A program made the position numbers and the translations under genes. A DNA stretch of 52,624 nucleotides from a virus. Lineage: Duplodnaviria; Caudoviricetes. Shown one piece after another: positions 12,814-52,624 of this stretch. Every line of letters starts with the position of its first letter. Position 1 is the first letter of the stretch. The notes beneath the pieces are model-generated. The model worked only from the letters and a program-made list of their open reading frames with translations, ran no database searches and had not been told where the DNA came from. The stretch lies in the IMG/VR virus record IMGVR_UViG_3300045738_000739, positions 1 to 52,624 of that record, one strand, 5' to 3'.

Positions 12814-12816
12814 CGA

Positions 12817-13305: not shown

Positions 13306-13315
13306 CAGTTTCCTC

Positions 13316-22016: not shown

Positions 22017-23102
22017 TCATGCTCCTCTCAATGCGTCGGTAAGTAGCGCGGCAAGTTCGTTGAGCGGATCACCGGCTGCGCCCCCACTCAGCGCAGCAAT
22101 TGTCGTCGGTGTCTTCACGAGCGGGATGCCGAACAACGCTGCTGCTGCCGTGATGACTGGTGCCCACTCTGTCAACAGCCCTGCAAGATTCTTGAGAGCT
22201 GAGGCTGTCATAAGTTTCTGAAGCGGAGCCACGACTGGAACCGGGTCTCCCAGCTGAATCGAATCGGGACCACCTCCGGTCACCACGAGTTTTGACAAGA
22301 ACGGCAACAGCTCAATTGCCGCCCCTAGCGTGTTGACCGTGAACGTAACGGTCGGAGCCAAAACTTCCAACGTCGGATCGGGCGAAGGGGTCTCGCTGCC
22401 ATCCGGTAGAACAGTCCCGCCAGTTTGATCTTTGATGCTGACGGTGACCTTCCCGCCATCCTCGACTCCGGTCAGATTACCTCGAATCGTGCGCCGCCAT
22501 TTGTAGTCAGGCATGTCCAACATCGTGGCGACAATTGTCGCCTGCGGATGCGGCAGTTGACCGATGATGATCGGATAGCGAAAATTGTTGTCACGCCATG
22601 TCACGAGAACACAGTCACCGTCACAGCTTGACAGATCAGACGGCTCGCCCTTCGACTCATCCAAATTGAGCAAACCGCTCGTAATGTCCACCGTCGCAGC
22701 TCTTGGCTTCCACAATTCGGTATCCGTAACCCCATGCGAACGGGTCATGACCTGCGCGCCGACAATTGGGCCAACCAAAGAACCCGACCCACAGAAGACA
22801 TCACAGAATATGCCCGACCCACCCGAAGCGTGATCTGTGAGACCCTTTGACTTTGGAGAGCCTGGTGCCGAGATGTCGTCGCCAGTATATGTCGCTATCA
22901 CGAACCCCATCACGACCATCCCAGCCGAATTGAGCGCAGTAGTCGGCAGCCCGCCCTCCTTAGCCGTCGTTCCTGTAGCTGTTGAAGCATCGTACCGTGC
23001 GCCTGGAGTTTTGGTTGCGCCTGCGAAAAGTTCAGGCTGCACTTCGGCAAGTCCGAATGCCGTAGAGCCATACCCAAGATTCAACCTGTAAGGCTTGGTC
23101 AT
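22017..23102 (-). CDS. baseplate central spike (gpV/gp5-like OB fold)
   Basis: GDCVLVTWRDNNFRYPIIIGQLPHP OB-fold motif; follows the hub gene. Confidence 0.75.
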   Translation of the reverse strand: MTKPYRLNLGYGSTAFGLAEVQPELFAGATKTPGARYDASTATGTTAKEGGLPTTALNSAGMVVMGFVIATYTGDDISAPGSPKSKGLTDHASGGSGIFCDVFCGSGSLVGPIVGAQVMTRSHGVTDTELWKPRAATVDITSGLLNLDESKGEPSDLSSCDGDCVLVTWRDNNFRYPIIIGQLPHPQATIVATMLDMPDYKWRRTIRGNLTGVEDGGKVTVSIKDQTGGTVLPDGSETPSPDPTLEVLAPTVTFTVNTLGAAIELLPFLSKLVVTGGGPDSIQLGDPVPVVAPLQKLMTASALKNLAGLLTEWAPVITAAAALFGIPLVKTPTTIAALSGGAAGDPLNELAALLTDALRGA

Positions 23103-24843: not shown

Positions 24844-27303
24844 TTACTTGAAAAGTTTGAAGATGTCTTTCAAGCTCATCCCGCCATCAAGTATCTTGTT
24901 GAAAGCAGCAGTCATTTTCTCAATCTTATCCGTAAGTTTGTTGAGTGCCGGTCCTAACACCTTTTGGACAGCGTTTGACAGATTGAGCATTGTCTTCTGA
25001 AGGGCAACAACCTGCCCTTGAGCCTGCCGACCCGCATCGGCTCGTGCCGCATCGAGACCCGCTGCTGTCCTCATTGTGCTGAGTGCGCTTACCGGACGTG
25101 CCGACTTGCGCATACGCGGGATGATGTCACGTCCGACAGTCGAGATCCCAGCCGCATACTGTTCCGCTCCAGGCTCCCCATAACCGAGAGCATGGCCGGC
25201 TTGGGACATGCTGATGTCACCCATCCCCGGAATCCCCTGGAACCCTTGCTGCATGAACATCGATTGCACAAGCGGAGAAAACCCACCGACTTTATGCTGT
25301 GCGATAAACTTAGCCATGATCTCGTCGGAGCCCAATCCGCCGCCTGCCCTTTGTAGCTTTTGCTTGCCAACAGCCATCCCATGCAAGCCCGTCCCAGGCT
25401 CCCAGCCTGTCGAACGCATAAGAGCAAACTCCATCGGGTTGCTGACACCTCCGCGATAGCCAACCTGTGAGACCCCCGCGCCAAACGACAACGACATCCT
25501 AGAGGCAACTTGACCGGCTACACCCGCGCCTGACAGCCTCAACATAGTTCGCATAAAGCCTGTCGGGTCACCCTTCTCCAAACCTAGTGAATACTGCTTC
25601 TGCATCGCGCCCGCCATATCCTTGAGATATTCAGTCGCCTCAGAATCCCTAAGACCAGATACGACGGCAGCATACAAGGCGCGAGCCATGACATGCCGCG
25701 CGTCCTCACGCTTACCGGCAACCTTCTTCCACGACGGATCATCCTTAGACCCCAAATTGGCATAACGTGTGTCTCGCTGTGTCCCCGTAACTCCTTTCAT
25801 GAACATGCCGGTAGTGCCCATCTCGACACCGTAGCCAGTGTTCATCATCTCAGCAAAATCGTATTGAGATTTGTTTGGACGTTTTCCCAAACCCTGGGCC
25901 TGGCCGAATGCCCGTTGGAGAGCTTCAGGGTTGGTGCGACCCCACCTTCGCCCAACAAGCTCAAGATCAGCAGTGCTTTCGTTGTTTCTGTAGTTTGCAG
26001 CCCAGCGAGCTTGCATGGCGGCACGTCGTGCTGCTGCCGCTGCGTTAACTTTCAGATCCTTATCCGACATATTACTCAGGATCGCCTGGACCTCTTCGGT
26101 GCCTGCTCCTCGATCCCTAGCCGCCCGAACTGCTTGGGCTGCTGGGCCGTCAGGGTCCATGCCCTTTGATGTGAAATACAAGTCGGGAATAGCCTTCGTG
26201 TATTTCTCATTCACCATGTTGGGCACTGTCTTTGTTTTGTTGATCCCGGCTGTTGTCCCGAAGCCCGCTTTTTCGGCTGCTTCTGCCGCGCCACCGAAAA
26301 CGTCAGCAACGGCACCACGAGCCCCTGGGATTCTGTCCAAGATGCGGTCGCCGCCGATGGCCGCCATCGCTGGTGGAGTGAACCCGGAATTTACCCCCAT
26401 TTCGGCGGCTTGGAGATCGCGAGCTAAGCCGCCACCGAAAGAGACCCCGGTGCTCACTTCCCTCGTGCCACGTTGGACACTGCGCGTTCCTTGGCCGCCT
26501 ACGGTGCCAGCATCGCCTACCCCGGCAATAATCGCGGCACGTTGTTTCTTGGTCAAACGAGCCTGTATAGCCGCAAGCTGACTAGCACTGATCTTGGCAT
26601 GAGAAGCGGGTGTAACTCCCAACCGGCCAGCAAACCCGCCAGCACCTCTCCCCCCAAGAAGTGCATAAGTGTCGCGTCGAGCACCTTGGTGCTGTACCCA
26701 ATTTCCGTAATTTTGATGAGCGAACATGAGTGCGCCGCCCATAACTCCACCGACAATTGGAATCGTGCTGAACAATTCAGCCATCGCTTGGCCTGAAGGC
26801 GCAGGCATCTGGTAACTGCGAACACCCTTTGTCCGACGAGATGCACGCGCGAGCAATCCCATCTTGGCTGCGCCGCCACCCGCACCACCACGAGAAGCAC
26901 TCTGCCCGGCATGACCACCGCTGCCAGCAGCTCCACCAGCACCACCGCCAAAGCCGCCACCGCCGAAGCCAGCACCGGGTGCGCCCCCGGCACCACCGCC
27001 AGCCTTTGCCAACCGCTCAAGCTCTCGGCGCAGCGCAGCCGCTTCAGTCTTAGCTTCTCTAAGCGTGTTCTTGAGATTCTTGTATTCGCTGACCCCTTTT
27101 TTGGAGCCGACAATTGCCTCGTTGAGCTTTTTGAACTCACGAATGGTGACTTGAACCTGCTTCGTGAGTTCCGCGAGAGCCTTGTTGAAGTCTCTTGTGG
27201 TATCCCGCTTGAACGTCTTCCGCAGCTTTTGGTCGAGCCTGTTCAGTTCTCGCGCATTGACCTTGATGTCTAGCTGCGTAGTGGTGATTCCGGCACTCGC
27301 CAC
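24844..27303 (-). CDS. tape measure protein
   Basis: 819 aa, Ala/Gly-rich, coiled-coil termini, after the chaperone pair. Confidence 0.8.
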   Translation of the reverse strand: MASAGITTTQLDIKVNARELNRLDQKLRKTFKRDTTRDFNKALAELTKQVQVTIREFKKLNEAIVGSKKGVSEYKNLKNTLREAKTEAAALRRELERLAKAGGGAGGAPGAGFGGGGFGGGAGGAAGSGGHAGQSASRGGAGGGAAKMGLLARASRRTKGVRSYQMPAPSGQAMAELFSTIPIVGGVMGGALMFAHQNYGNWVQHQGARRDTYALLGGRGAGGFAGRLGVTPASHAKISASQLAAIQARLTKKQRAAIIAGVGDAGTVGGQGTRSVQRGTREVSTGVSFGGGLARDLQAAEMGVNSGFTPPAMAAIGGDRILDRIPGARGAVADVFGGAAEAAEKAGFGTTAGINKTKTVPNMVNEKYTKAIPDLYFTSKGMDPDGPAAQAVRAARDRGAGTEEVQAILSNMSDKDLKVNAAAAARRAAMQARWAANYRNNESTADLELVGRRWGRTNPEALQRAFGQAQGLGKRPNKSQYDFAEMMNTGYGVEMGTTGMFMKGVTGTQRDTRYANLGSKDDPSWKKVAGKREDARHVMARALYAAVVSGLRDSEATEYLKDMAGAMQKQYSLGLEKGDPTGFMRTMLRLSGAGVAGQVASRMSLSFGAGVSQVGYRGGVSNPMEFALMRSTGWEPGTGLHGMAVGKQKLQRAGGGLGSDEIMAKFIAQHKVGGFSPLVQSMFMQQGFQGIPGMGDISMSQAGHALGYGEPGAEQYAAGISTVGRDIIPRMRKSARPVSALSTMRTAAGLDAARADAGRQAQGQVVALQKTMLNLSNAVQKVLGPALNKLTDKIEKMTAAFNKILDGGMSLKDIFKLFK

Positions 27304-27306: not shown

Positions 27307-27669
27307 CTACTCCAGTACAGGTGTCATTCCTGCGGCTATCTCACGTTCCCATTTATCGATCTGCGGATCCCCCGTTCGTGCCGCCTCGCTCCAAGGCACT
27401 TTCCCAAGTGTCGGCGGACCCCAGCGGCGATTGCGCTCGATAGTGGTTGTTTCTGGATCTGAATTGTCGTCCGCTGATTTGGGATCAGCGATCTCATCCG
27501 TGAAAACCAGAAACGCCAAAAGTTCGACAACCGTGTAATCCTCGAACTCTCTAGGCGGTTTCCCCGTCTTCTTCCACCAAACCCACGATGTCGCCCAAGA
27601 AATGTCATCAGCTTTCCATCTCGCCTTCGCTACCTGTTTCGGATCCTGTGCCCCAAAACGTAGCCTCAT
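27307..27669 (-). CDS. second tail assembly chaperone (gpT-like), own ATG or frameshift product
   Basis: overlaps the upstream chaperone in the +1 frame; TGDPQIDKWEREIAAG; AGGAGG before ATG 27669. Confidence 0.7.
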   Translation of the reverse strand: MRLRFGAQDPKQVAKARWKADDISWATSWVWWKKTGKPPREFEDYTVVELLAFLVFTDEIADPKSADDNSDPETTTIERNRRWGPPTLGKVPWSEAARTGDPQIDKWEREIAAGMTPVLE

Positions 27670-28201
27670 GCGAGACAACCTCCTTGTAGATCGCCGCCAA
27701 CACGCCTACGTCGCGCACCTCATCAAGATTCTCTGCCCACTCAGGTGTGGCCGATAGGCTGACCGCGAGATGCGCCTGCATCTCCAGCAGCATCCCAGTT
27801 GTTTCATCGAGTGCGGCAGCTGCGACACCACCGGCCATCCGGCTGCGCGTAAGGCCGACCGTAGCGCGCTCACGAATCGTCAGAATGTGCGACGTAAAAG
27901 AACCGGACCAGTGGTAGCCACGACCGTCCGTGTAATCGAGAACGAACGTCTTGGTGGCTTCGACTGTACCGTCCGCACTTTTAGCGTCGTTGTCAGGACC
28001 AGACTTTTTGACTTCCTTCGCCGCTTCTCCCGCAGTCGGTGCATCAACCGGCTTGAGTCCGGTCGTTGTCCCGTTGCCCCCGTTCGCCTTGCTCTTGAGC
28101 TTTGGCTTCTTCGGCGGGTTCTTGCGCCTGCGCTCGGCTCCGATCCCATCGACTTCAGCCTGCGCTGTAACTTCCTCTTCGCTGATCATGTTTGCCTCCA
28201 T
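27608..28201 (-). CDS. tail assembly chaperone (gpG-like)
   Basis: between tube and tape measure; AHLAVSLSATPEWAENL...LAAIYKEV. Confidence 0.75.
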   Translation of the reverse strand: MEANMISEEEVTAQAEVDGIGAERRRKNPPKKPKLKSKANGGNGTTTGLKPVDAPTAGEAAKEVKKSGPDNDAKSADGTVEATKTFVLDYTDGRGYHWSGSFTSHILTIRERATVGLTRSRMAGGVAAAALDETTGMLLEMQAHLAVSLSATPEWAENLDEVRDVGVLAAIYKEVVSHEATFWGTGSETGSEGEMES

Positions 28202-39823: not shown

Positions 39824-40807
39824 TTATCTCCCGCTGTGGCTGGCCCGGTCCACGATCAGTTCGACCTGTTCAGCCGACAATTGAGGTTTCATGGAGCCGA
39901 CAATAAGTCGAGCCTCAGATTTTGTCATCTCCATTTCGACTGGTTCCTTACTGAACTCTGCCATCGCATCGGCCCAATGGTGGGCGTAGTCAATTGTCGT
40001 CATGACTTCAGGCGTAGCCCGCACTCTGGCCGAATTGTCGCCTTTCGTCAAGTGCGGGTTTTTGCCGGCCACACCGCCTTGATTCGGCTGACCGCCATCT
40101 TCGGACGGAACTGCGCTCAGAAACGAGAGCCCGAACTCTTCTGCGATGGCTTTCTTCTTCTTCTTGCGTTTCTTCGGGGTCTTCTTTTGGTCGTACTGAG
40201 AACCGTCCAGTGATTCTGTTCGTAGCGCGAAACCGCTATCGGTCGCGCCTGCTTCGCTGCCGACCGTATGCCCAGCCGACAATGCCTTGGCAAGCGCAAT
40301 CATCTCGGTCGAGGTATTCACCGGGCAGTGCGTGATCGCCACGTTGCGAACTTCGGCGGCGACAATACGCGAATTGTCGTCTTTGTCGCGACGAAGCACC
40401 TTCCCCTCGATGCTGAAGCCAAGCCGTCGCTCTCCTCCAGTTTTCTGGAGTGCGGCGCACAAGTCGTAAACACGGCGACCTTCGTCGGTGTTCAGCAAAT
40501 AACCCTCTGTCCACCAGCCCTTTTTGTCCGCACGGCGGCCATTTGGCAGCATTGCGCCCTTGGTCACTTGATACGCAGCAGTCGGATAGCCCAGGACATC
40601 AACAGTCTTCTGCCCGTGGTTGTCGTTGAACCAGCCATGCGCCAGGAACGGGCTAAAGTCGAGACCGTCTTGGACGACAACCTCTTGCTGGCGATCGAGG
40701 TCTTGCGTGCTGACGACTCCCCCAACGCGCATCGAACAACCGTCTTCAGCTTCAGACTTCTCCCAAACGCTTAGGGGGATGTGGAATTTGAAAGCTCGGT
40801 CAGACAC
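39824..40807 (-). CDS. prohead protease
   Basis: GGVVSTQDLDRQQEVV, GWFNDNH, RLGFSIEG, NVAITHCPVN. Confidence 0.92.
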   Translation of the reverse strand: MSDRAFKFHIPLSVWEKSEAEDGCSMRVGGVVSTQDLDRQQEVVVQDGLDFSPFLAHGWFNDNHGQKTVDVLGYPTAAYQVTKGAMLPNGRRADKKGWWTEGYLLNTDEGRRVYDLCAALQKTGGERRLGFSIEGKVLRRDKDDNSRIVAAEVRNVAITHCPVNTSTEMIALAKALSAGHTVGSEAGATDSGFALRTESLDGSQYDQKKTPKKRKKKKKAIAEEFGLSFLSAVPSEDGGQPNQGGVAGKNPHLTKGDNSARVRATPEVMTTIDYAHHWADAMAEFSKEPVEMEMTKSEARLIVGSMKPQLSAEQVELIVDRASHSGR

Positions 40808-40899
40808 CTGGGATCCTCATCATCGGAGCACCCCGTTGACGACAATTATCGTCGGGCCTTTCACCGTCCTCCGAAGTTTGTCTTGAATTGTCGCCTTTG

Positions 40900-41130
40900 T
40901 CAACCCCGTCGCACACGCAGAGCTGGGATAACACCGGGCTTGTTGGCTAACAACCCCTTGTTGAGCGCACTCGCTACGGCGACAACAACATCTTGTTTGC
41001 AGCTAGGACACGGGCCATGGATCTCACCGTTGTCGGGGTCCACGAGCACGATGCCCAAGCGGAGCCGAAATCCGCCATCGGTAGCTGCGCCACCAATCGA
41101 CTTGCAGCAATGCGGGCATCGAATCTTCAT
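40900..41130 (-). CDS. small zinc-ribbon protein (Com-like)
   Basis: TGATG overlap at 41130; MKIRCPHC...CPSCKQ. Confidence 0.65.
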   Translation of the reverse strand: MKIRCPHCCKSIGGAATDGGFRLRLGIVLVDPDNGEIHGPCPSCKQDVVVAVASALNKGLLANKPGVIPALRVRRG

Positions 41131-41468
41131 CAGTAAACCTGAAGCCCCAGCACACCCGCAGCCGAAGCTACCCGCGAACCCATGTGGCAGCGGTGAACGG
41201 AGCACGCCTTGGCGACTCCACGAAGCACCCTCTGTAGCCCGTCAGAGCCGTGGTGGCGCATGATGTACGCGCAGGTTGACTGGTGCTCCAGCCAGTCAAC
41301 CAGCCAGTCCAGACGGTTGGAGTCCCCTTCCTCGTAGAGCCGGTCGAATGCCGAGATGTTGGGCAGGGGTAGATCGACCTCGCCGGGCAGCCCGGTCGGT
41401 CCAGCTGACCAGAGAACGTGCTCCAAGCGTAGCCCTCTTGGAAGCTCAAACTGTTTGCTGTGTGGCAT
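41130..41468 (-). CDS. hypothetical protein
   Basis: AAGGAG RBS + ATG 41468 overlapping the end of the giant gene. Confidence 0.65.
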   Translation of the reverse strand: MPHSKQFELPRGLRLEHVLWSAGPTGLPGEVDLPLPNISAFDRLYEEGDSNRLDWLVDWLEHQSTCAYIMRHHGSDGLQRVLRGVAKACSVHRCHMGSRVASAAGVLGLQVY

Positions 41469-44400
41469 CGTCATCTCCTTTCATGAGTTTGCGAGCAAAG
41501 TCGAAAACTAGGCGAATCGCCTTGGTGATAACAGTGCTGCTAGCCTTGGACAGCGACAGTGAATCGACCTGCTCAAAATGGCCCGCGACCGAGAAGTCTG
41601 TACCTTCCTGCACGTTTCGGATGATCTGTTCAAAGCTGATCTTGCGGCTTCTGCCCATCGCTCGGGTGCGCCGCTCAGTCGCAACGGGGTGCTCTTTCTC
41701 GTAGCCGGTAAAAACGCGCTGTGGGTCCGGTTTCTCACCATCCACCTTTTTCGGATGGTGAACATGAACCTGGCCAACATTCCCAGATGTGCCCAGCACT
41801 CGCACGTTGACGAGGTATTTCTTCGTTTTAAGCACCGCTCGATCTTCGGGAGTCAGCATGTCGATGAGGCGATTCTGGACATCGTCGTTGGAAACGATGC
41901 CACCCATCGGGCCAGCCTTCATAGCCTGCTCAACTTCGTCCCGCTTATCCTCCATCCAAGTAAAAATCTCGTCAGCTCGAATCGCGAGGTACACCGCAGC
42001 AGCATCGTGCGAACCCGTGCCCGTCGCGGGGTCGTGCTGAACGAAGCCTGCATCCATGACAGCCTTTCGCTCCGCTTCGGAGAGTTGGTAAATCGTGTCG
42101 CCGACTGTCACCGCTTTGCCGTCTAGCGCGTCACGCACTGCGCTCTCAGCATTGACGCAGTGCATAGGCCCGCCACGCGCTAGCGAGGCGTAAGTGCCTG
42201 ACTCAATCTTTTCGGCGAGGTCTACCATCTCCCCCTGCGGAATCGAGATCACTGTTCCGGTACCGCCAGGGATTTTCCGTTTATTCAGCTCATTTAAGAG
42301 CTGATACTGGGTGTTTGCGCCAAGCGTGGCCGCCGTCGCGCACTTGTTGGCCAATAACGTCCACTCGGCAGCAAGCCGGCGTATCTGGGAGCGCGATTCG
42401 CTGGACGGTGGGGCTCCAGGGCAAAGGCGAGTGCGATAATCCTCAGACACCTCAAGACAGCGTGTGCGGATCAACGACAAGGCACCCTCGAACTGCATAC
42501 TTTTAAGCTGCTCGCCTTCGCGTCCAGCGATAGGCCCATTCAAAGTGAGCTTGCCGATATGGCCGACTGGGCGGTCACGCGGACCCGCCTCAAAGATGGC
42601 AGCTTCCATATTTCTGATCTTGCTGAATGGCCCGCTACCGTCGTACTTGGGCCGACCCTTGTCGTCGTACTCCTGAACCATGAACGGGATCTTCTTGCCG
42701 TTCTCGTCCAACTTCGGTTGATTCTGGTCGTCGGTCTCCCAAACAGATTCACCCTTGTGATTCTTCTTCTGAGACATGATGGCGCGACCCAACAGCTTAC
42801 CTTTGACGGCTGCCGGCAGCATCCGCGCGCACCGGGTCGTCCGCTGATCCTCTGCCATCGGGCTCGCCAACGTGTCGTACTTGAGCATTTCGGTGGCATT
42901 ACCGAGATTCATTCCAACCTGCGCAGCATCGGAACAAACGATGACCTCGCAGTTGTTGAAAACCGTCGTCTGCTTAGACGACAATACAGGCGTGTCAGTC
43001 GCACCCTGTTTTGCCAATGCGGTGTACTCTTCTTTCAACGATTGAAGTTCTCTCTTCGCACCCTTCTGGTCGTCGTCAGCCATCTTGTTCGGATCCCCAA
43101 TCTTGGCGATTCGACTCAAAATAGCAGCAGAGCGTTTCGTCCCGTTAAAAGCACGCTTCTCTGTCGTACCATCGCCTTTGGAAACCAAAACGAACGACTC
43201 CGGTGCTTCGATCTTGAACTGCGCGAAAATCTGACTGCGCTGCTCTGCCGTCCACTGGCTAAGCGCAACGTCGTCGGGAGGCTTGCGGTCACCTGGATAG
43301 AGCATCCAGTTCGATTCGTATTCTTTGCCCTTATCCCCAAACACACCCTTCGCGTCCTTCCACGTACTCGCGGGACGGGGCTCAGTGCATTTATGGACAA
43401 AGAGAGAGACCTCGGAATCGCGCTGTAGTGCATCTTTGACCTTCTGGAAGATCGCGACATTCAGCTCACGATCGCCTGTATAGGTCGCGCCAATATAGGT
43501 GACAAAATACTTGTCGTTGGGACTACCATTCTTGGTCGTCTTGTCCTCGGGATCGTAATGCGGCGAACCTTCGAGAACTTCGTTCACATCCCGAAAGCCC
43601 ATCTGCCGCATCTTCGCTTCCATTGTGCGGCACGAGTCGAGAATGCTGTTACCGAACATAACTAGCTGACGCGCGCCATCCGGTCCTGCCTTCCCACCCT
43701 GGCTATAGAACCGGGTGACGTGATCCTCCAGCTCATCCGCCTTCGCGTTCTGGTGGGTACACGCTATGTCGAACTTGTTGCGCTCAGCACGCATGCCGGG
43801 GTCAAAGATGCTTTTGACGAGTGCCGAAACATCCTTTTCCTTGACGATCAAAACCTCGCCGGTCCCAAGCACGCGAACACCCGCTTGACCCACTGGTGCT
43901 GCGATGTCGGGATCATACCGAAACTGCGGAGGCACCCAGTTCTTACGCGCCTCTTTCGCAGCCTCGCGCTCTTCGGGTTGCAAACCGCGTGGCACTCCCG
44001 GCGGAACGATACCCGCAGCCTTCATCGCGCTAGCCGACAATTGGACTAGAGCACCCGACCTGACTGCCGCGAAACCTTCCTTGCTCAGATCCTTGGGCCT
44101 GTGATTCTTCTCATCCCAGTCTTTCGGCATGAAGACCACATGCTGCGATCCTTTGGGATCCGAAATCCAATTGTCGTCGGTCGTGAGCTGAACCGGATCG
44201 CCGCTGTGGTCGGCTGACCACGACTGCTCAATGATCGTAGGCGAAGGGTGGATCTGGAGCAGCGCTCGACCTTCCTCCAGCGAGATCCCAAGACGGTTGC
44301 AGACGTTCTGGAGACCTTCCTCCCAATCCCCGTCAGGCGGCTCAAGCTGAAGCTCCGTGCGCAGCGCACGCTGAAAGTGCAGCGCTCGGTCGATCTCATC

Positions 44401-47400
44401 GACCCGTGCAGCCCGCTGCCCCAGCAAAGCCTTCTGGGCACTGCCAGAGGACCGCCTGATGCGCTCGTTGATCTCGTCCAGCCAGTTGATCCCGTGACCG
44501 CGAAAACGCACACCCAGCTCACCCGCGTCGGGGTTCTCGATCTTCTTGCCTAGTGGCGCATCCCAGCCAGCATCGACCATGCGCTTCAAAGCTACCTTCG
44601 TCTGTGCTGCCGTGGGCTTGCCTGTGCCCTTGTAACCCGGCATCCCGGTGCCGATCCACTTGCCCGCAAGCTCAGCATACGGCTGCCCCAGAACTTCCTG
44701 GCAGTACAGATCATAGACGGCAGCCTGCTCAGGTCCGATCTCCTCGATGCGCTTAAACTTCCCTTTCGCAGTGCCTCTGGACTTGTCCATCAGTTCCGAA
44801 GGTCGGAACGTGGTGAAGTCAACCCGTGAGTTTGATTCACCACCCGACTTGTTAAAAGTGACCGTCGTCACCCTAATAAACTTCTCGGGATTGCCCGCTT
44901 TATATCCAATACAATTGGTGATCGCCTTGGCTGCCTTCGTCAGCTTACGTGTCTCCTCGTCACTGATGCGGTCGATCTCTTCCGGGTCAAGTCCAGCTCC
45001 ACCCGTATCCGAACCTAGTGACGCCATATACAGGTTGAACAGCGTTTCCTGGATGCCCTTCATCTCTGCGAACTTGCTCTCCTCTGTACGGACACCGGGG
45101 AGAACCTTGCCTCGCACATCCTTCGGTAAAGCTATGTCCATCCACTTCGCGAGAATGGCCGCAAGCTCACCCATCTTTTCCGCCTTAACCGACAGCTTTG
45201 CACCCTTTCCAGATTCGCCAAGCTGCCCAGGAACGGGCGTCTCCTCCAAATACTCGTCAATGAATTTCTTGCTGGTCATGTCGGGCCATTCTTTGCCCTT
45301 CGACAATAACCGCACATACTCAACGAAGTCGGTCGGTGATGTCGTCATCGGAGTGCCGGTCAACAACATCAGCATCTTCATGTCGTCATTCCACTCACGC
45401 ACTACACGATTTCTCTCAGCCGTTTCATTCTTGATGCCCATGTGAACCTCGTCCACGATCAGCCCATCGAATCCACACTGCTTGAGTTTGGCCGCATGCT
45501 TCGTAAAATACTCAGGACCGACGACAACCAGATCGCCGCGCGAACTATCTTTCATCGCAAGAAATTCATCTGCTGAAATATCGCCTGACCCGCGACCGAC
45601 CACTTGCGCTCCCTCATCGAAATCGGCACATGCTTTACGCCACTGCTCAACGGTGTTGAGCGGAGCGACAACCAGCACACGCTTCGGATTACCCGGATTG
45701 CGCCGCGTATTGTCGAAAGGATTATTCTCGTACCAATCTTTGATGTCCTCCGCTGTCATCTTGGCTTTCTCAGCCGATGAGAGCTTCGCGCGAGCAGGAC
45801 GTTCCATCATCATTTTCGCGGCGACAATTGCGGAGACAGTCTTGCCCGTGCCCATATAATGAGCAGCAAGAACTCGACCATCGTTGTCTATCATTTTCTG
45901 AAGCAGCTTTTGCTGATGGCCGCCCAACGTGAACTCTTCGCCCGATGGCAAACGCTTGTTGAGCCCTGCGCCCCAATTGTCGGCGAGATTTGCGGGATCG
46001 ATCTCAGCCAACGACATCTCGTGCGCGTCAGCCGACATCGACTTCTCAGCATCCACAAGATGATCAATGCGCTGCTTCAGATAAGTGTCCACCTCGCCAG
46101 TCAACGAAAGCCCACCAAGCATCTTCCGCAACTCGGGGAAGCGGTCAGCTGGAACCTCGACCGCAGTGATCTCACCCCTCAAACCTGGAACTAGCTCTGG
46201 GCCTTGATCGGCAGCAACCGCTCCTTGGATGGCGAGGATGGAATCGGCGGACACACGTCCGTTCTTCGGTAGCTTGACCCGCAAACTCTTGTGCATCGTC
46301 GCGCCCGTTCTCGGATCGACATCGTGGTGCATGTAGACCAGCACCTCATTTTCGAGAGCTTCTGGCGTGTGTGAGCCCTTTGGCCAGCTCGTTGAAGAAC
46401 GAACTGCGTCCTCACCGTAGCGAATAAAAGTACGACCCGGCGTGCCGCCGCCGACTTCGCCTTTGAAGAGGTAAGCAGTCGGATACGCTTTCGCCTTCTC
46501 CGATTTGTACGTCGATCGGTACGCCGCCATCGCGGGGACGAAGTGGGCATTGAACCACTCTCGATACACGTCGCCGCCATTGTACCACTCGGGAAGAAGA
46601 CCCTGTTTGATGTAGCCCTTCTCAGCCTTGGTGAGCTTCTGCCCATCGGGAACCGGGTGCGACGGCGTCAAGTTTGGGATGTAGTTCCCAGCCAAATCCT
46701 TGGGCATGCGATCCCAACCAGGCTTTGGCGGCGCTTCACCGGCTTTCTTACCCATGATGATCCGCTCAAGACGAGCGACAACCGTCTTGTCCTCAATGAC
46801 CGGATCTGTTTTAGCAGTGGCGTCGATCAGAACACGCGAACCCTTTGTAGGCAGCGCACCCTTTGGCGGCTTTGCAGGCGGGTTGAGTGTGATCTGCTGC
46901 GCACCGATGACAGCGCGTGCGCCTTCACGAAAAGCGAAGATCGGATCGTCCTTCAGCAAGTCGTCGATGCGCGGCTCATCTTTGCCAAGACGACTCGCCC
47001 ATTCCTTGCCCATGATCTTGGGCTGGCCGGAACCATCGTACTCGACCTGCATGTGGTAGACGTGTTCGCAGTCGCCCTTCTTCCCCATCTTCCATTTGCC
47101 GTTAGCCTTCTGAATGCGCTCACGGTCAGTGCGAACAGAGATCCAAGTAGTGCGCTTTTCAGCAGCCGCCTTCTTGCAGAAACGACGCAAATCGTCGGCA
47201 GAGTTGATCGACTCACCATACGGAGTAAGCAACGCTGACCACATTGGATCGGAGACTCGGAAGCCTGTCCCCCTGGGATCGCGATGGCAGTCAATTGTCG
47301 TCGTCGTTCCATCCGGGTTGTCATTCACAAAACGCTTGGAATCGAAAATGGGCTCGACCTTGCCGGTCACATGGTTGACAGCCGTCACCACATCAGCACG

Positions 47401-49629
47401 GGTGAAATGTCCCTTGGCGTTACGCGCCATTTTGATCTTGATTCCAGGCTGCTTTTTGCGCAGCTTGGTCAGCGCAAGACGCTTCTGCTCGTCTGTCTGC
47501 GCGCGTTGCCACGCGCGCATCTCGGACTCGCCCGCCGTGTCCCAACGGTCGTAAGAGAACGTGCCAGACCTCTGACGGAACTCGCGACAGGTAAGCTCGT
47601 GCGGGCGCATAAGCGCAGGCTTTGGCGGTTTGCCGTTAGCGTCGTTGTAAGCCGCCTCCATCTTAGCCAGCTCATCGGCAGTCGCCTTACGTTCTGGCTT
47701 CTTGAGCGTCCACGCTTTGCCGCTCTTGATCGCAACAACACCCTTCTCAAGTGCTTTTTCGAGTAAGGCTTGACCGGCAGTAGTCGTATCGCGCAGAAGG
47801 AATTTTGGACCCATCTTGTCCACCAAGGCTTGGACCTTGGCTGCCTTGGCTGCGGACACTTTAGAACCCGACTTCTTACTCTTGAGACCTGTCGGGAGAT
47901 CGAGAATGTCTTGCAGCGTAACGTCGAGCTTTTTGCCTTTGACAGTAACCTGCGCAATCTTCGCTTTGGGGTCGTCGAACTGGTCCTGCATCAGATGCCA
48001 GTAGATCAAATCCCGATCAAGAGGCTGACGGTTTTCGTCAAATACCTCTTTGATGTCCTCTGCCCTGATCACTGCGTTATTGGACGACTGACTCGGATCA
48101 GACGGATCCCAGTTAGGCTTTCCCATGTCCCCATCAACCGACTGTTTGCCATAACGGAAATAAATCGTCCTACCCCGATAAGACATCTCGAAGAATCGAT
48201 CATGCAGCCGCTTCGTCTGACGACCGATTTTGTCTTCGTCAGGCGGATCCGCGACGTACTGAGTCTCGCTAGTCTGCGGGGGACGCGGAACAGCCTGGAT
48301 CAGCTTGGCCACTGGCTTGACTTCTTTTCCGGCGAACCAGGCCAACCTCTCATCCTCGAAATCCATCTCGTCCAACCCGTCCAACTTGTCGAGTCTCTTT
48401 TGGACGGCAGCCTTGTCGGCTGGGCTCCGCGCTGTATCAAGCTCAGCCTTTAGCTTCTCGATCCCAACCTTGTCGGTCGTGAGCGGAAACATCTCATCGG
48501 CACCGATGAATTGTCGCATCCACTCATACGTCTTCGGGCAGCTCACGGACATCTGCTTCGGGTACAGGATCGAACAGGAAAAGCTCTCAGCGAACCGCTC
48601 CTTCATGTGGACATCACGACCCTTTTGAGTGATCTCAGCGTAAGCCGTGATTCCCGGCTCTTTGCCCTTACCCACGAGGTTCTTCTCGAAGAACGAAACC
48701 CAGTCCTTCCAAAGAGGCCCGTCATAATCCGGCCCCATATCGTTCGGACCTCGCGCACCCATCTTGTTGTGGATCGCGTGCGCCATCTCATGGACCAGAA
48801 TATCTACAGAAGATGTGCCCGCATCGAACTGAGGAAGATGCTCCCCTCTCGGAGCGATCCTAGAACCACCCCAGGCGGGCTGTTTTACCCCTTTCCCCGG
48901 CGTCTTCCCCGACCAAGATCCGTCTGCGCCAGTCAGGTCGAGTCCCAATACGATCTTTGAACCCTGAGTCCCCCAGCCTCCAGCCATGCAATAAGCCGAA
49001 GCAGAACCACGACGGAGATAAGCGTCTTCGTCCTTGGTCGTCACCAGAAGCTCGGAAATAGAGCCGGAAAAATGCTTGCGTATATTCGACGGGATCTGCC
49101 GGAACCCTAAGTCGAGAATCCTGAGAGCGTGGATCTTCTGCCCGTACAATTCGTCGGGCTCACCTCCCAAGTCCGCATAATGTTCCTCGACCGCATCCTT
49201 GAAAACCGACTGCGCTACAGGCGACAATACAATCTCGGGCGGCTTGTCCCACGCTAGAAACTCGGTGACCAGATCCACGGTCAAATCTTTTAACTCGGTA
49301 CGCGCCGCACGCAGCTCCGGGTGATCGCCCTTAAACTCGGAGCGCAGACCACCCTCATGCTCTTCGACAGGAGCCTGCGGGGCTTTGCCTTGCAGCTTCT
49401 TAACCTGCTTCTTCTTGCGCTTGATCTTGCGCGCCTGCGACTCCAAGAACTGCTTCCGACCCTCTTCGTTGTCGTAGTAGTATTTCCACCGGAGCTTGCC
49501 CTGCGACATCGTGCGGACTCGACGCCAGTATTTGTGCCCTGCTTGCGCGCCTCGTGCGAAGCCAACGCCCGCTTTCTCAAGCTCGTCGGGTGTGTACGTG
49601 GGATGATCCAAATTAAGCCCGAACTTCAT
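41446..49629 (-). CDS. giant polyvalent protein: zincin metallopeptidase + SNF2-family ATPase (DarB-like architecture)
   Basis: GGAGG + ATG 49629; HEMAH...ERFAESF...CPKTYEW; HYMGTGKT, IVDEVH, LLTGTP, SDAAQVGMNL, EDQRTTRCAR. Confidence 0.88.
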   Translation of the reverse strand: MKFGLNLDHPTYTPDELEKAGVGFARGAQAGHKYWRRVRTMSQGKLRWKYYYDNEEGRKQFLESQARKIKRKKKQVKKLQGKAPQAPVEEHEGGLRSEFKGDHPELRAARTELKDLTVDLVTEFLAWDKPPEIVLSPVAQSVFKDAVEEHYADLGGEPDELYGQKIHALRILDLGFRQIPSNIRKHFSGSISELLVTTKDEDAYLRRGSASAYCMAGGWGTQGSKIVLGLDLTGADGSWSGKTPGKGVKQPAWGGSRIAPRGEHLPQFDAGTSSVDILVHEMAHAIHNKMGARGPNDMGPDYDGPLWKDWVSFFEKNLVGKGKEPGITAYAEITQKGRDVHMKERFAESFSCSILYPKQMSVSCPKTYEWMRQFIGADEMFPLTTDKVGIEKLKAELDTARSPADKAAVQKRLDKLDGLDEMDFEDERLAWFAGKEVKPVAKLIQAVPRPPQTSETQYVADPPDEDKIGRQTKRLHDRFFEMSYRGRTIYFRYGKQSVDGDMGKPNWDPSDPSQSSNNAVIRAEDIKEVFDENRQPLDRDLIYWHLMQDQFDDPKAKIAQVTVKGKKLDVTLQDILDLPTGLKSKKSGSKVSAAKAAKVQALVDKMGPKFLLRDTTTAGQALLEKALEKGVVAIKSGKAWTLKKPERKATADELAKMEAAYNDANGKPPKPALMRPHELTCREFRQRSGTFSYDRWDTAGESEMRAWQRAQTDEQKRLALTKLRKKQPGIKIKMARNAKGHFTRADVVTAVNHVTGKVEPIFDSKRFVNDNPDGTTTTIDCHRDPRGTGFRVSDPMWSALLTPYGESINSADDLRRFCKKAAAEKRTTWISVRTDRERIQKANGKWKMGKKGDCEHVYHMQVEYDGSGQPKIMGKEWASRLGKDEPRIDDLLKDDPIFAFREGARAVIGAQQITLNPPAKPPKGALPTKGSRVLIDATAKTDPVIEDKTVVARLERIIMGKKAGEAPPKPGWDRMPKDLAGNYIPNLTPSHPVPDGQKLTKAEKGYIKQGLLPEWYNGGDVYREWFNAHFVPAMAAYRSTYKSEKAKAYPTAYLFKGEVGGGTPGRTFIRYGEDAVRSSTSWPKGSHTPEALENEVLVYMHHDVDPRTGATMHKSLRVKLPKNGRVSADSILAIQGAVAADQGPELVPGLRGEITAVEVPADRFPELRKMLGGLSLTGEVDTYLKQRIDHLVDAEKSMSADAHEMSLAEIDPANLADNWGAGLNKRLPSGEEFTLGGHQQKLLQKMIDNDGRVLAAHYMGTGKTVSAIVAAKMMMERPARAKLSSAEKAKMTAEDIKDWYENNPFDNTRRNPGNPKRVLVVAPLNTVEQWRKACADFDEGAQVVGRGSGDISADEFLAMKDSSRGDLVVVGPEYFTKHAAKLKQCGFDGLIVDEVHMGIKNETAERNRVVREWNDDMKMLMLLTGTPMTTSPTDFVEYVRLLSKGKEWPDMTSKKFIDEYLEETPVPGQLGESGKGAKLSVKAEKMGELAAILAKWMDIALPKDVRGKVLPGVRTEESKFAEMKGIQETLFNLYMASLGSDTGGAGLDPEEIDRISDEETRKLTKAAKAITNCIGYKAGNPEKFIRVTTVTFNKSGGESNSRVDFTTFRPSELMDKSRGTAKGKFKRIEEIGPEQAAVYDLYCQEVLGQPYAELAGKWIGTGMPGYKGTGKPTAAQTKVALKRMVDAGWDAPLGKKIENPDAGELGVRFRGHGINWLDEINERIRRSSGSAQKALLGQRAARVDEIDRALHFQRALRTELQLEPPDGDWEEGLQNVCNRLGISLEEGRALLQIHPSPTIIEQSWSADHSGDPVQLTTDDNWISDPKGSQHVVFMPKDWDEKNHRPKDLSKEGFAAVRSGALVQLSASAMKAAGIVPPGVPRGLQPEEREAAKEARKNWVPPQFRYDPDIAAPVGQAGVRVLGTGEVLIVKEKDVSALVKSIFDPGMRAERNKFDIACTHQNAKADELEDHVTRFYSQGGKAGPDGARQLVMFGNSILDSCRTMEAKMRQMGFRDVNEVLEGSPHYDPEDKTTKNGSPNDKYFVTYIGATYTGDRELNVAIFQKVKDALQRDSEVSLFVHKCTEPRPASTWKDAKGVFGDKGKEYESNWMLYPGDRKPPDDVALSQWTAEQRSQIFAQFKIEAPESFVLVSKGDGTTEKRAFNGTKRSAAILSRIAKIGDPNKMADDDQKGAKRELQSLKEEYTALAKQGATDTPVLSSKQTTVFNNCEVIVCSDAAQVGMNLGNATEMLKYDTLASPMAEDQRTTRCARMLPAAVKGKLLGRAIMSQKKNHKGESVWETDDQNQPKLDENGKKIPFMVQEYDDKGRPKYDGSGPFSKIRNMEAAIFEAGPRDRPVGHIGKLTLNGPIAGREGEQLKSMQFEGALSLIRTRCLEVSEDYRTRLCPGAPPSSESRSQIRRLAAEWTLLANKCATAATLGANTQYQLLNELNKRKIPGGTGTVISIPQGEMVDLAEKIESGTYASLARGGPMHCVNAESAVRDALDGKAVTVGDTIYQLSEAERKAVMDAGFVQHDPATGTGSHDAAAVYLAIRADEIFTWMEDKRDEVEQAMKAGPMGGIVSNDDVQNRLIDMLTPEDRAVLKTKKYLVNVRVLGTSGNVGQVHVHHPKKVDGEKPDPQRVFTGYEKEHPVATERRTRAMGRSRKISFEQIIRNVQEGTDFSVAGHFEQVDSLSLSKASSTVITKAIRLVFDFARKLMKGDDDATQQTV

Positions 49630-49970
49630 GCCACGCCTCCTCGCCCAGTTGGGCAAACGCGCGTCAACGGAAACTTGCGAATTGCAGCGCCGAAGTGCTT
49701 GGGGTCGTCAGCCGTCACCACACCAGACATCATCACGTCCATGTTTGGGTCGTCACTCTCCCCCGCCCACCGTGTCCACACCGGCTGATCCATGAAGGTC
49801 GCTAGCTCAGCCCAAAACGAACTGTCGGCTACTTTGGCATCGAACTCGACAACACGGAACCCATGGTCAGCGCTCTCGTCGCGCTCCAGCGAACATGCCC
49901 AGCGGAACTGCGGACGATGCGCGCGGTAGTACCTGTGTAGGTGATAAATGTCTTTCTCTGCATCAGCCAT
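49626..49970 (-). CDS. hypothetical protein
   Basis: AAGGAG RBS + ATG 49970; ATGA overlap with the giant gene. Confidence 0.65.
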   Translation of the reverse strand: MADAEKDIYHLHRYYRAHRPQFRWACSLERDESADHGFRVVEFDAKVADSSFWAELATFMDQPVWTRWAGESDDPNMDVMMSGVVTADDPKHFGAAIRKFPLTRVCPTGRGGVA

Positions 49971-52488
49971 TGTCATCTCCTTGTGACGCTGCTTCTTCTT
50001 TGGTGGGCACTCTGCGCGCCGCACCGGAAAGTTCTGCTCGATAGCGCTGCGCTGCTTTGCGGCCCGCCGCCGAAGCCGGATCAGGCATCGGAACCCGACC
50101 TGTAAATTGCTGGAACCGTGCCGGCGACATCACCTTCGACTCGCCGCCAAACGACGGACCTCTCCACGTCGTCGGATCCGATCCGCGTTTCAGCAGGGCT
50201 TGCATGTAGCCCCGCATCACCTCGTCCGCGTACAACCAGCTCGACTCTGGATCTGAGCCGGTCGGAATGGTCTCCACTTCGTCACTGCCAACGGACCTCG
50301 TTCTGCCGTATCGTAGAAATTCTGACAGCCGCTCTCGATCACGTTGCTCGTGATAAAGCTGACGAACCTCACGCTTCTCGGCAGCCGACGCTTTGCCTGA
50401 CTTTTCCCTCTTCAGAATCTTGCCAACGCGATCACCCCGCCCTGCTCTCACACCAGCCGCGTAAATCCTGACCCGCTCGTGTTCGAGCCCTTCAACATGT
50501 CCTGTCAGCACTGCAATCCTAGACGACAATTGATCCTGATTGTCGTCCTTCGCAGTATCACGCTTGGAACGCAATTGTTCAATCTGCTTTTTCGCGCTTG
50601 CAATAGCTTGTTTGTCAGCACCAAATCGAGCAAACAACTCGCGATAGCTGGGACCGGGCGACTCCTCGGTACCGAAGAACTGGCCCGGAGCACCAGCCTC
50701 GATCCACTTCTGCGCATGCAGTCGCGCCTCCGCACCCTTCTCGTGCGCAACACGCTGAAACATCTCGGTCGCCGCGCTGCGTGCCTGGGCTCCCAGACCC
50801 CTCTTGTGCCGCGCCGAATGCCCCTTTTTGGCGATGCCTAGCCGCTCAGCCAGCTCCTCGTTCGACATCACGACGTTGCCGCTCAATTGTCGCCTACCTT
50901 CGCCGGGTTCAGCGTCCGGTGTGAGGCCAAACAGCAACTCGATGGCTCGCGCATTCTGATGGCCGATCTTCCGCTCGTCGCTTCCCGGCTTCCCCACCTG
51001 TTCCATGTCGCTCAGAATGTCATCGATCTCACGACGCAGATGGAGCTGCGTCCCAACTGGAAAATCGGGATCAGTGTGCGGACCCGCCACCTCGTGCGGG
51101 TTTTGATTCATCCACTCAGAGTCGAGCACCCGGTGACCATCGAGCACCCGGTCGAGCGTGCTGATGAGTCGATCCTTGCCCGGCAGTTCCTTGCCCAGCT
51201 CCTTGCCGTCTGGAGCCCTAACCTGCCACCCGTCGAACGGAACTTCTTCAGTCGCCTGATCGACAACCTTGCCTACGTCGTTGTGGTAGACACCAAGTGT
51301 CGCCGCTCGTCCGGTGAAGGTGTCACGCTTCTGGAGTCTCCACGCTCTCGCGATTGCCTTCTTGGTGGGCTCCTCATCGGTCTTGCGACTGGCTCGGTGC
51401 TTGGCCGCGATGTAGCCGTGCATCAGGCGCATCGTCTGGTGCGGCACAGAGGGACCACCGCCGCCCAGCGCAGACCGTGCCGCATACGACGCATAGGTGT
51501 TGACGTAATCTTGGGCGATCATGGCAAACGGCTTGCCGCCTGAATAGCCACGCAAAGCCATCAAGAATCCAAGATTCGCACCGCTCTTGATCTCCTCGAA
51601 GTCGGGCGACTCGTTGCCATCGGAATCACGCATGTCGATTGCGTGGCTCGCGGCAACTTTACGCGATGCAGAGTGCAGCAGCCCTTTGAACTCCTGCAAC
51701 ATCCCGGCTTGGTCAGCCTTCGGAATGAAGATCCCTTGAGACTTCTTCGCGCGCAGCCCGCGCTCGCGATCCACGAAAGTCGCCAACGGATAATGACCGT
51801 TCTCGACCTTGTGCAAGAACGTACCAGCCTTGGCTCTCGAATCCGCGAACACCTTCGACCGCTCGGCTTCTTCGGAGACAGGATGATCTCCAGAACCCTG
51901 CTTTATGGGCTCTGTAATCGCCCTTCCTGGGGGTAGCTTTCCACCGGGTGTGCCGGCCCGTTTCTTCGGCGGTGGACGCCTGGGGGCTGTCCTACGGGGC
52001 TTCACGGGGGCTTTTGGCTTAGCCTTGCCCTTCATCGGCTGGAGTTTTGACGATCTGACCCGGATAGGCTCGCCAGCCGCCCGACCGTGCTCGGGATCGA
52101 ACGTGGTGACATGCGTGTACTTTCCGTCGTCGTCGGCTGCATCCGGTGTCCAAACGAACAGACCATGCCGACCTTGGATGCTGACGAACTGCCCCGCCTT
52201 GATGTCCGAGATCCCGGTCTTGCCGTAGTCGGCTTCCCAGTCGTGATGATCCCCGTGCTTGTGCTCTGTCGGGTACCAGTAGATCCAGCCTCGGCCCTTG
52301 CGCTTGCGGAACCCCCTATGCTTTGAGTTGGGGATCGAGCTGTAGCCGGCTGGTGGTTTGGTCACGCCGGCTTTGCTCAAGCTATTGTCGGCGACAATTG
52401 CTAGGGTCAGCTTCTTCGGTTTCGCCTTTCGAGCAGACAAGGGTGTTGCAAAAGCTGCCTGTATTTCTCGCACATGTGAAGGGTTCAT
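49963..52488 (-). CDS. sigma70-like protein with long N- and C-terminal extensions
   Basis: region 2-like GLLHSASRKV..DFEEIKSGANLGFLMALRGYSGGKPFA; region 3-like EEPTKKAIA; region 4-like RAIELLFGL..MSNEELAERLGI. Confidence 0.7.
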   Translation of the reverse strand: MNPSHVREIQAAFATPLSARKAKPKKLTLAIVADNSLSKAGVTKPPAGYSSIPNSKHRGFRKRKGRGWIYWYPTEHKHGDHHDWEADYGKTGISDIKAGQFVSIQGRHGLFVWTPDAADDDGKYTHVTTFDPEHGRAAGEPIRVRSSKLQPMKGKAKPKAPVKPRRTAPRRPPPKKRAGTPGGKLPPGRAITEPIKQGSGDHPVSEEAERSKVFADSRAKAGTFLHKVENGHYPLATFVDRERGLRAKKSQGIFIPKADQAGMLQEFKGLLHSASRKVAASHAIDMRDSDGNESPDFEEIKSGANLGFLMALRGYSGGKPFAMIAQDYVNTYASYAARSALGGGGPSVPHQTMRLMHGYIAAKHRASRKTDEEPTKKAIARAWRLQKRDTFTGRAATLGVYHNDVGKVVDQATEEVPFDGWQVRAPDGKELGKELPGKDRLISTLDRVLDGHRVLDSEWMNQNPHEVAGPHTDPDFPVGTQLHLRREIDDILSDMEQVGKPGSDERKIGHQNARAIELLFGLTPDAEPGEGRRQLSGNVVMSNEELAERLGIAKKGHSARHKRGLGAQARSAATEMFQRVAHEKGAEARLHAQKWIEAGAPGQFFGTEESPGPSYRELFARFGADKQAIASAKKQIEQLRSKRDTAKDDNQDQLSSRIAVLTGHVEGLEHERVRIYAAGVRAGRGDRVGKILKREKSGKASAAEKREVRQLYHEQRDRERLSEFLRYGRTRSVGSDEVETIPTGSDPESSWLYADEVMRGYMQALLKRGSDPTTWRGPSFGGESKVMSPARFQQFTGRVPMPDPASAAGRKAAQRYRAELSGAARRVPTKEEAASQGDDNG

Positions 52489-52624
52489 AAGTGTTCGACC
52501 TCCACATACCTGACGGTAAGCTCGTCATGGAGCTTTTCGTCACGAACGGACTTCACGCGCATGCTGCCTGAACTTATCACTTCGTCTTCACCCGAATAGG
52601 CAGACACCCCATCGACGTAGGTTC
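52485..52624 (-). CDS. C-terminus of a probable ADP-ribosyltransferase (partial)
   Basis: translated by hand: TYVDGVSAYSGEDEVISSGSMRVKSV..VRYVEVEHL*; S-x-Y-x-x-E-x-E motif; ATGA overlap with the next gene. Confidence 0.6.
   Translation of the reverse strand, partial: TYVDGVSAYSGEDEVISSGSMRVKSVRDEKLHDELTVRYVEVEHL

Follow-up and report, generated by a model that had tools for sequence, protein, structure and literature searches.

A divergent sigma70-like protein in the head module of an uncultured tailed phage

The viral record IMGVR_UViG_3300045738_000739, a linear stretch of 52.6 kb (52,624 nucleotides (nt); estimated completeness 57%; hereafter the window), encodes on its minus strand a protein of 841 amino acids (aa), P0001, which carries a divergent sigma70-like core inside an oversized protein of the phage head module. 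This claim is supported by profile comparison, by curated sigma models matching the relatives of P0001 and by fold comparison, and P0001 is almost certainly a homologue of the sigma70 family. The open reading frame (ORF) runs from 49963 to 52488, starts with ATG and is preceded by GGAGG about 9-13 nt 5' of it; coordinates and length are exactly those given in an earlier note on this DNA, which had proposed a sigma factor or sigma mimic delivered with the virion. The fold and the protein class are known, while their combination and the delivery route that it implies are new.

The sigma70-like core and its protein family

The family to which P0001 belongs is remote from annotated proteins. A word-indexed search of 5.8 billion proteins with P0001 returned a single relative, P0002 (44% identity), in which an InPase and a GNAT domain lie N-terminal to the body shared with P0001, and a family profile recovered only four proteins from the word-indexed library, none of them named. 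The profile of P0001 plus P0002 matched 3295 of 1.84 billion representatives at E <= 1e-3, a count that is inflated because P0002 contributes InPase and GNAT columns; 77 of the matches lay at E <= 1e-30. Among 150 other proteins listed, 95 match P0001 directly, and coverage of these representatives extends to the sigma-2 part in 82, region 3 in 85, the sigma-4 part in 37 and both sigma-2 and sigma-4 in 30. No match to P0001 was obtained by tblastn against 50,697 GenBank phage records, and three queries in all gave no match to the core in these records; no cultured member of the family was found there. Likewise, no prophage copies were detected among 185,579 species genomes scanned with two narrow peptide patterns.

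The alignment of 44 family sequences (A2) was used as a profile against all PDB sequences, and 58 of the 60 best were sigma factors, the remaining two matching InPase columns. The best match was Bacillus subtilis SigA (7ckq_F) with a whole-sequence E of 4.8e-11 in two collinear stretches with a bias of 0.0-0.1. The first pairs A2 439-524 with SigA 160-245 (regions 2.1-3.1) and corresponds to approximately aa 297-382 of P0001; the second pairs A2 623-681 with SigA 297-351 (region 4), approximately aa 482-563 of P0001. SigA was still found with a shallower profile of 10 sequences (E 1.5e-4), and the profile of a remote 12-member subgroup gave only a borderline match to FliA (E 0.0099). When the 44 relatives were scanned with NCBIfam, TIGR02937 matched 20 of them and all 22 families matched were sigma factors, and the Pfam scan matched Sigma70_r4 in 6/44, r2 in 2/44, and r4_2 and r3 in 1/44 each. 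In the family, region 2.2 keeps its signature G-x3-A-x3-[FY] and region 4.1 its 'FGL'. At the family level, the sigma resemblance exceeds chance.

Fold comparison agrees with the profiles. The AlphaFold model of P0001 computed with 70 aligned sequences reached a mean predicted local distance difference test (pLDDT) of 81.1 and a predicted template modelling score of 0.66; with 2 sequences only, the pLDDT was 45. A first fold comparison, over 48,161 chains, ranked sigma-B at the top and listed 5 sigma entries in 50 rows, including SigI6, WhiG and a fragment of RpoS with regions 1.2 and 2, the remaining rows being coiled-coil matches to aa 613-700; in a second one, 46 of 50 rows were sigma factors. 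The sigma-2 fold at aa 255-342 superposes with a root-mean-square deviation (rmsd) of 2.0 Å over 77 residues on sigma-28 and of 2.0 Å over 70 residues on the sigma-70 fragment 1sig; for sigma factors overall, the superposition of this domain gave an rmsd of 2.0-2.6 Å over 77-90 residues. Whole-chain sigma alignments extend to model residues 579-591. Co-folding of aa 215-390 with residues 220-334 of the Escherichia coli beta-prime subunit, run without controls, scored 0.24 against a mark of 0.32, which speaks neither for nor against an interaction.

The following parts of P0001 were distinguished, all on the minus strand:

49963..52488, minus: whole sigma-like ORF P0001, head-module protein (ORF reading, ribosome-binding site and ATGA overlap with the upstream frame)
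52372..52488, minus: aa 1-39, low-confidence N-terminal leader ending L-S-K39/A40 (pLDDT <50 for aa 20-41)
52024..52359, minus: aa 44-155, motif PPxG..IP..K.GG.RK...G.xYWYP and small beta-rich domain (pLDDT 81-96 in blocks of ten)
51877..52023, minus: aa 156-204, basic Pro-rich linker (24.5% Pro, isoelectric point (pI) 12.0; pLDDT <50 for aa 161-191)
51727..51876, minus: aa 205-254, conserved segment before sigma-2 (S217, A219, E229, G231), structurally aligned with sigma region 1.2
51454..51726, minus: aa 255-345, sigma-2-like domain, regions 2.1-2.4 (profile and fold)
51313..51453, minus: aa 346-392, helices like sigma region 3.0/3.1 (the region-2 profile stretch continuing through SigA ~210-245)
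51058..51312, minus: aa 393-477, family-specific insert with beta strands and two helices at the position of the sigma 3.2 linker (conservation and model)
50689..51057, minus: aa 478-600, sigma-4-like part (4.1 'LLFGL'; 4.2 helix-turn-helix with a lengthened turn; profile and Pfam matches of relatives)
49966..50688, minus: aa 601-841, helical C-terminal domain (long hairpin 613-730) and poorly ordered tail (model)

The three sigma segments lie where the earlier note had seen them. Its region 2 (nt 51480-51700, aa 263-336) agrees with both the A2 profile and the fold placement, and its regions 3 (nt 51340-51450, aa 346-383) and 4 (nt 50820-51040, aa 483-556) match the first and the second stretch paired with SigA. 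In the region 3-like helices, for which the SigA counterpart in the profile is 'RIPVHM...EPTPEEIA', residues A361, A362, A366, A380, W383 and K387 are near-invariant. The following insert, for which no sigma counterpart was found, has strongly conserved residues of its own (Q411, P417, W421, G428, G432, P436, G437, K438). The N-terminal 260 aa are basic and rich in proline, as had been noticed (pI 10.3, 19.2% lysine plus arginine, 9.6% proline; pI of the whole protein 9.8); they are not, however, one disordered tail, as aa 44-155 form a confidently modelled beta-rich domain, for which the ESM Atlas gave only a weak KOW/NGN-like resemblance (TM 0.43-0.47, below the Atlas bar). The C-terminus described earlier as partly coiled-coil indeed consists of long helices at aa 613-730. 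Within the domain at aa 601-841, for which fold comparison gave just generic coiled-coil matches and the ESM Atlas nothing usable, aa ~641-660 are nearly absent from relatives (mean occupancy 2.4 of 70 rows), and aa 671-730 are common to 50 of the 150 listed representatives.

Gene slot and domain fusions of the relatives

All window genes of note lie on the minus strand, and P0001 has the same orientation as the protease, scaffold and major capsid genes and lies upstream of them, so that its assignment to a head operon in the earlier note stands. It is followed on its 3' side by a small ORF, a 2736-aa peptidase/SNF2 protein, a 114-aa ORF and the prohead protease (39824-40807; phrog_1028), then by a scaffold-like protein, the major capsid protein (phrog_752, SU10_MCP), sheath, baseplate and fibres, and the replication genes. 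The window capsid protein is 34-36% identical to capsid proteins of SPO1-like Bacillus phages.

Ten viral loci encode true homologues with 31-46% identity over the core. ORF maps of nine homologue loci reveal one shared layout wherever the contig is long enough, in which an ORF of ~585 aa is followed by three small ORFs, another of ~340 aa, the sigma-like gene (750-1651 aa), an ORF of 105-125 aa and one of 2400-2850 aa. Checks with Pfam and PHROGs placed the portal upstream in both loci tested (L008, L016), the SNF2 giant downstream in all four (L008, L014, L016, L017) and the prohead protease after the giant in the single locus tested (L014).

InPase is joined to the core in 29 of the 44 relatives, where it takes the place of the leader, and in 20 of the 23 long members. 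Other fusions in the long members include S-AdoMet lyase (5), Topoisom_I of type IB (4), TMEM65 (2) and DUF5661 (2), with ART-PolyVal, DarA_C, ddrB-ParB and LPD1 once each, and SAP DNA-binding domains occur in 3/44 relatives. P0001 itself showed no enzymatic or polyvalent hallmark domain in the Pfam scan. In A2, the InPase columns hit the C-terminal part of the solved portal 9b41_L (E 4e-30); this PDB chain ('gp19 Portal', 765 aa) carries, at residues 636-759, the InPase of polyvalent type that stands at the N-terminus of most P0001 relatives, and in cultured phages the InPase part matches genes annotated as minor head or portal protein. Iyer et al. (2017, PMC5512222, main text) count InPase, DdrB-ParB, ART, zincin-like peptidase and SWI2/SNF2 ATPases among the building blocks of phage polyvalent proteins, which in their prediction are packaged into the head and injected, the InPase being sometimes fused to the portal. 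P0001 is very probably a member of this head-module, polyvalent family. The fusion to topoisomerase IB is found in P0026, P0034, P0041 and P0093, and a eukaryotic-type (IB) topoisomerase domain is also encoded upstream of the portal in locus L016 (1-1650).

The motif near the N-terminus of P0001 belongs to a cassette, L-x-K-[AS] ... PPxG[FW]..IP..K.GG[YF]RK...G[WY]xYWYP, which lies at 52270-52386 of the window (aa 35-73) and is also present in loci L002 (2800-6516) and L005 (9875-15481); it is repeated 3-4 times within polyvalent proteins adjoining portal genes. In 46 of 48 instances, L-x-K-[AS] stands 26-35 aa (in one case 43) before the GWxYWYP motif, compared with 13% in controls. HK97-type prohead proteases cleave after Lys, and the window capsid protein carries ELNK/AL at aa 38-41. 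The L-x-K-[AS] cassette may be a cleavage site of the prohead protease.

A possible role at genome entry

Family-level homology and fold, a conserved gene slot and domain fusions are the ground on which we explain P0001 as a highly divergent sigma70-family protein that is packaged in the capsid, ejected and active on host RNA polymerase, an explanation whose chances as a whole we consider evenly balanced. The protein would be a late product like the head proteins, would be packaged in the capsid, possibly trimmed at the conserved L-x-K/[AS] site, and would leave the capsid with the DNA. On arrival in the next host cell, sigma-2 and sigma-4 would bind the host core RNA polymerase and steer it to phage DNA ahead of all phage gene expression. 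A sigma factor co-produced with late head genes comes too late for the current cycle but would stand ready for the following one. We regard packaging and ejection of P0001 as probable and its action on host RNA polymerase as somewhat favoured, and that it is a true promoter-specificity factor we consider somewhat less likely than not. No phage RNA polymerase genes were seen in five partial records, although the search for single-subunit polymerases was uninformative, as its control matched nowhere.

Several observations weigh against this explanation. P0001 alone gave no match in Pfam, PHROGs, PDB (phmmer) or NCBIfam, and because it matched no curated family model we class it with divergent homologues and not among the annotated members. 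With the whole P0001 model, Foldseek returned nothing at E <= 1e-3 in PDB or BFVD; chains of sigma-S, SigB and SigA appeared in PDB at E 0.07-0.4 amid noise, and a Vibrio phage sigma factor ranked second in BFVD (E 2.4e-3, probability 0.89). The interpretation in the earlier note is, as a whole, partly supported; its core claim of a divergent sigma70-like protein is borne out, and delivery with the virion is indirectly supported by the conserved gene slot and by the polyvalent domains of relatives. A six-frame scan with Pfam Sigma70_r2 and r4 missed the sigma-like genes in all five viral records scanned; in the window it found nothing. The sigma-4 part is detectable in far fewer of the listed representatives than the sigma-2 part (37 versus 82 of 150), and its recognition helix follows the lengthened turn and is poorly conserved across the family. 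In the alignment of A2 with SigA, the segment 'FSTYATWWIRQ' of SigA pairs with 'FAMIAQDYVNT' of P0001, in which only the last aromatic residue is retained; most aromatic residues that read and melt the -10 element are lost, and the preceding loop is two residues shorter. The case for packaging comes from the head-module position, the polyvalent-domain fusions of relatives and the timing, and like packaging itself, ejection and polymerase binding are inferred. The records are fragments, 16-68% complete, and a phage polymerase or early promoters could lie outside them.

Residues of the group-1 type for reading and melting the -10 element define groups 1-3 and not the whole sigma70 family, and ECF-type sigmas function without the group-1 melting residues. 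Because the group-1 residues are mostly not kept, P0001 may be either a sigma factor or a sigma mimic. Judging from the alignment, promoter recognition by P0001, if there is any, cannot work as in housekeeping sigmas. A scan for sigma70-type promoters over 40000-52624 gave 6 sites compared with 4.1 in shuffles, which is no excess.

The main rival explanation is that P0001 is a docking module or decoy for RNA polymerase, which would not read promoters itself but would displace the host sigma, shutting off host transcription, or tether fused and neighbouring enzymes (InPase, ART, GNAT, topoisomerase IB, SNF2). It is favoured by the loss of most -10 reading residues of region 2.3 and by the near-constant fusion of the core to InPase, and the weak conservation of sigma-4, undetectable in many relatives, points the same way. 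The proposal that polyvalent InPase clears pyrophosphate and so favours early transcription or replication (Iyer et al. 2017, PMC5512222, main text) counts in its favour too. P0001, however, has no enzyme domain, and its closer relatives keep the collinear order of sigma-2, regions 3.0-3.1 and sigma-4 together with a basic recognition-helix region. The functional ECF-type sigmas also count against this rival, and we consider it unlikely.

P0001 could instead be a phage sigma factor of the ordinary sort, produced after infection (to serve late genes, for instance), whose location in the head cluster is incidental and which is not packaged. Phage-encoded sigmas are common and are used by SPO1-like phages, the window capsid protein is SPO1-like, and packaging lacks direct evidence. 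A factor co-transcribed with late head genes would, however, come too late to activate them, and in the loci examined the gene keeps its place between portal and prohead protease. The fusions to InPase, DarA_C, ddrB-ParB, ART-PolyVal, LPD1 and S-AdoMet lyase fit proteins acting at entry, and the tblastn result means that there is no match to known phage sigma genes in the GenBank phage records. We consider an ordinary sigma factor improbable. We consider it very improbable that P0001 is a structural or DNA-handling protein of the head interior, such as a pilot protein, a DNA-end-binding protein or an assembly factor, which reuses a sigma-derived fold and has no link to RNA polymerase. The head-module position, the very basic character of the protein, the SAP domains of three relatives and the fact that the strongest conservation lies partly in the insert would be in line with such reuse. 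Against it, the two sigma domains that face the polymerase are still present in their order, with the region 2.2 signature and the 4.1 'FGL' conserved, a conservation that would be difficult to account for had the ancestral partner been lost. That helical, alanine-rich segments resemble sigma factors by chance is hardly credible in view of the two collinear SigA stretches with negligible bias, the exclusively sigma-type NCBIfam matches and the first rank of sigma-B in fold comparison.

P0001 shares with bacterial sigma70 factors (SigA/RpoD, RpoS, SigB, FliA/sigma-28) the collinear regions 2.1-2.4, a putative 3.0/3.1 and 4.1/4.2 seen by profile, the sigma-2 fold, the pattern of G, A and aromatic residues in region 2.2 and 'FGL' in 4.1. 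It differs from them in its length (841 aa, some 250 residues more at either end), in being encoded by a phage head-module gene, in the replacement of the 3.2 linker by a conserved beta-containing insert, in the lengthened 4.2 turn, in the absence of most group-1 -10 aromatics and in matching no curated sigma model. Phage sigma factors, including SPO1 gp28/gp34 and T4 gp55, are small and are found among early and middle genes. Like them, P0001 is a phage-encoded protein of sigma70 type that is presumed to use the host core polymerase, but it is 3-4 times larger, it occupies the portal-to-protease slot and its relatives are fused to polyvalent domains. A more distant analogy is offered by poxviruses, which package initiation factors together with a type IB topoisomerase, an SNF2-family ATPase and their own polymerase. 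The topoisomerase fused in 4 of the 23 long relatives and the SNF2 giant as a conserved neighbour resemble this early-transcription machinery; in contrast to it, no polymerase gene was found in the partial phage records, and the host enzyme would be used.

Polyvalent proteins, as treated in the main text of PMC5512222, resemble P0001 and its family in their head-module location, in the domain fusions of the relatives, in the peptidase and SNF2 giant as a neighbour and in the predicted role at entry. They differ in that a sigma-like module goes unmentioned there, the word 'sigma' occurring 0 times in the main text (the supplementary domain lists lie outside this scope), and in that P0001 has no enzymatic domain. 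Comparators delivered with the virion are T4 Alt, the N4 virion RNA polymerase and P1 DarB (Iyer et al. 2017, PMC5512222, main text). No description of a packaged or injected phage sigma factor, or of a sigma-like module in head-associated or polyvalent proteins, was found in the portions of the literature covered, which include parts of PMC7824862, PMC5512222 and PMC12282133, and a phrase search on the subject gave reovirus sigma proteins only. We infer that the sigma-like family is an undescribed, recurrent module of head-module phage proteins of the polyvalent type. It is sizeable, the sigma-2 part being present in 82 of the 150 best representative clusters, and since the sigma core of P0001 is too divergent for Pfam, metagenomic catalogues probably list the family as hypothetical throughout.

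To our knowledge, four routes by which phages seize transcription at entry are known, namely use of the host sigma, an injected modifier (T4 Alt), an injected polymerase (N4, phiKZ, crAss-like phages) and a sigma factor made after infection. A sigma-like factor delivered by the capsid would, if true, be a fifth, would explain early transcription from promoters invisible to the host holoenzyme and would widen the repertoire of polyvalent proteins by a module for transcription initiation. It is conceivable, though still rather doubtful, that widespread, uncultured SPO1-like myoviruses package the sigma-like factor, the enzymes fused to it in relatives (pyrophosphatase, type IB topoisomerase, SAM lyase or ADP-ribosyltransferase) and the SNF2 giant as an ejected early-transcription kit. 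With the same reserve, such a kit could reprogramme the host core RNA polymerase at DNA entry and be a counterpart of the poxvirus strategy that uses the host enzyme.

The earlier note had also named P0001 as a candidate reader of the motif CGACAATT, a link that is not supported. The window contains 68 copies compared with 2.19 expected (for example at 21-28, 15153-15169, 22529-22540 and 40840-40893), split 33/35 between the strands. Of the 68, 57 lie within ORFs and occupy all three frames. In its extended form the consensus reads G-N-CGACAATT-[G/C], with G at position -2 in 58/68 copies. Because the motif is strand-neutral despite the minus-strand genes and mostly intragenic, it is not distributed like a promoter element; it looks like a signal at the DNA level, such as a modification, nicking, packaging or recombination site, and not like a promoter.

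Neighbouring genes and minor observations

The genes that adjoin P0001 are the following:

52485..52624, minus: 3' end of the upstream gene, truncated by the record edge; its stop overlaps the P0001 start (ATGA)
49626..49976, minus: small ORF of ~105-117 aa overlapping the end of P0001; likely start M17 or M19 of the listed 132-aa frame (49626-50024)
41446..49656, minus: giant neighbour of 2736 aa with an HExxH peptidase-like region and an SNF2 ATPase (Pfam SNF2-rel_dom, ResIII, Helicase_C)

The upstream partial ORF showed no similarity to the 340-aa upstream ORF of locus L008 or to the family profile; as this profile includes InPase, we reject the view that the partial ORF represents an InPase domain that has split off. 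The small ORF has a homologue at the same position in all seven loci compared (the window and six others), with 10 invariant columns and the motif HLWR.Y...PFRR.A. It matched 0 Pfam families and may serve the sigma-like protein as a partner, chaperone or anti-sigma.

The giant neighbour has a zincin-type HEMAH near aa 290, the SNF2 ATPase at aa 1247-1546 and Helicase_C at aa 2233-2279, and its homologue in locus L017 matches Peptidase_M90 with E 7.5e-6 and 26.1 bits, just under the cut-off of 26.2. By its domain content, the giant is a predicted polyvalent-type, DarB-like protein, which is kept directly downstream in the relatives. Intein matches (Hint/Intein_splicing) are present in locus L017 both in the ORF upstream of the sigma-like gene (1585-3567) and in the SNF2 giant (6606-15137). 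On the opposite strand within the span of the former ORF (3193-3294), Sigma70_r4 matches above its cut-off, which may reflect the helix-turn-helix of a homing endonuclease.

The ~340-aa ORF just 5' of the sigma-like gene (6544-7566 in locus L008) has homologues in L009, L011, L012 and L013 and invariant residues C252, C255, H295-P296, C298 and C300. Its H-P-x-C-x-C pattern resembles that of MuF/SPP1 gp7-like minor head proteins, an assignment that was rejected as none of the five members had Pfam support for it. Elsewhere in the window, an ORF like a tail assembly chaperone (27608-28201; phrog_25000/1038) is overlapped by a second ORF (27307-27678). The pair precedes an 819-aa ORF (24844-27303) in the tape-measure position, which matched no tape-measure family, and the layout of 27307-28201 appears to be the usual one of a chaperone frameshift pair.

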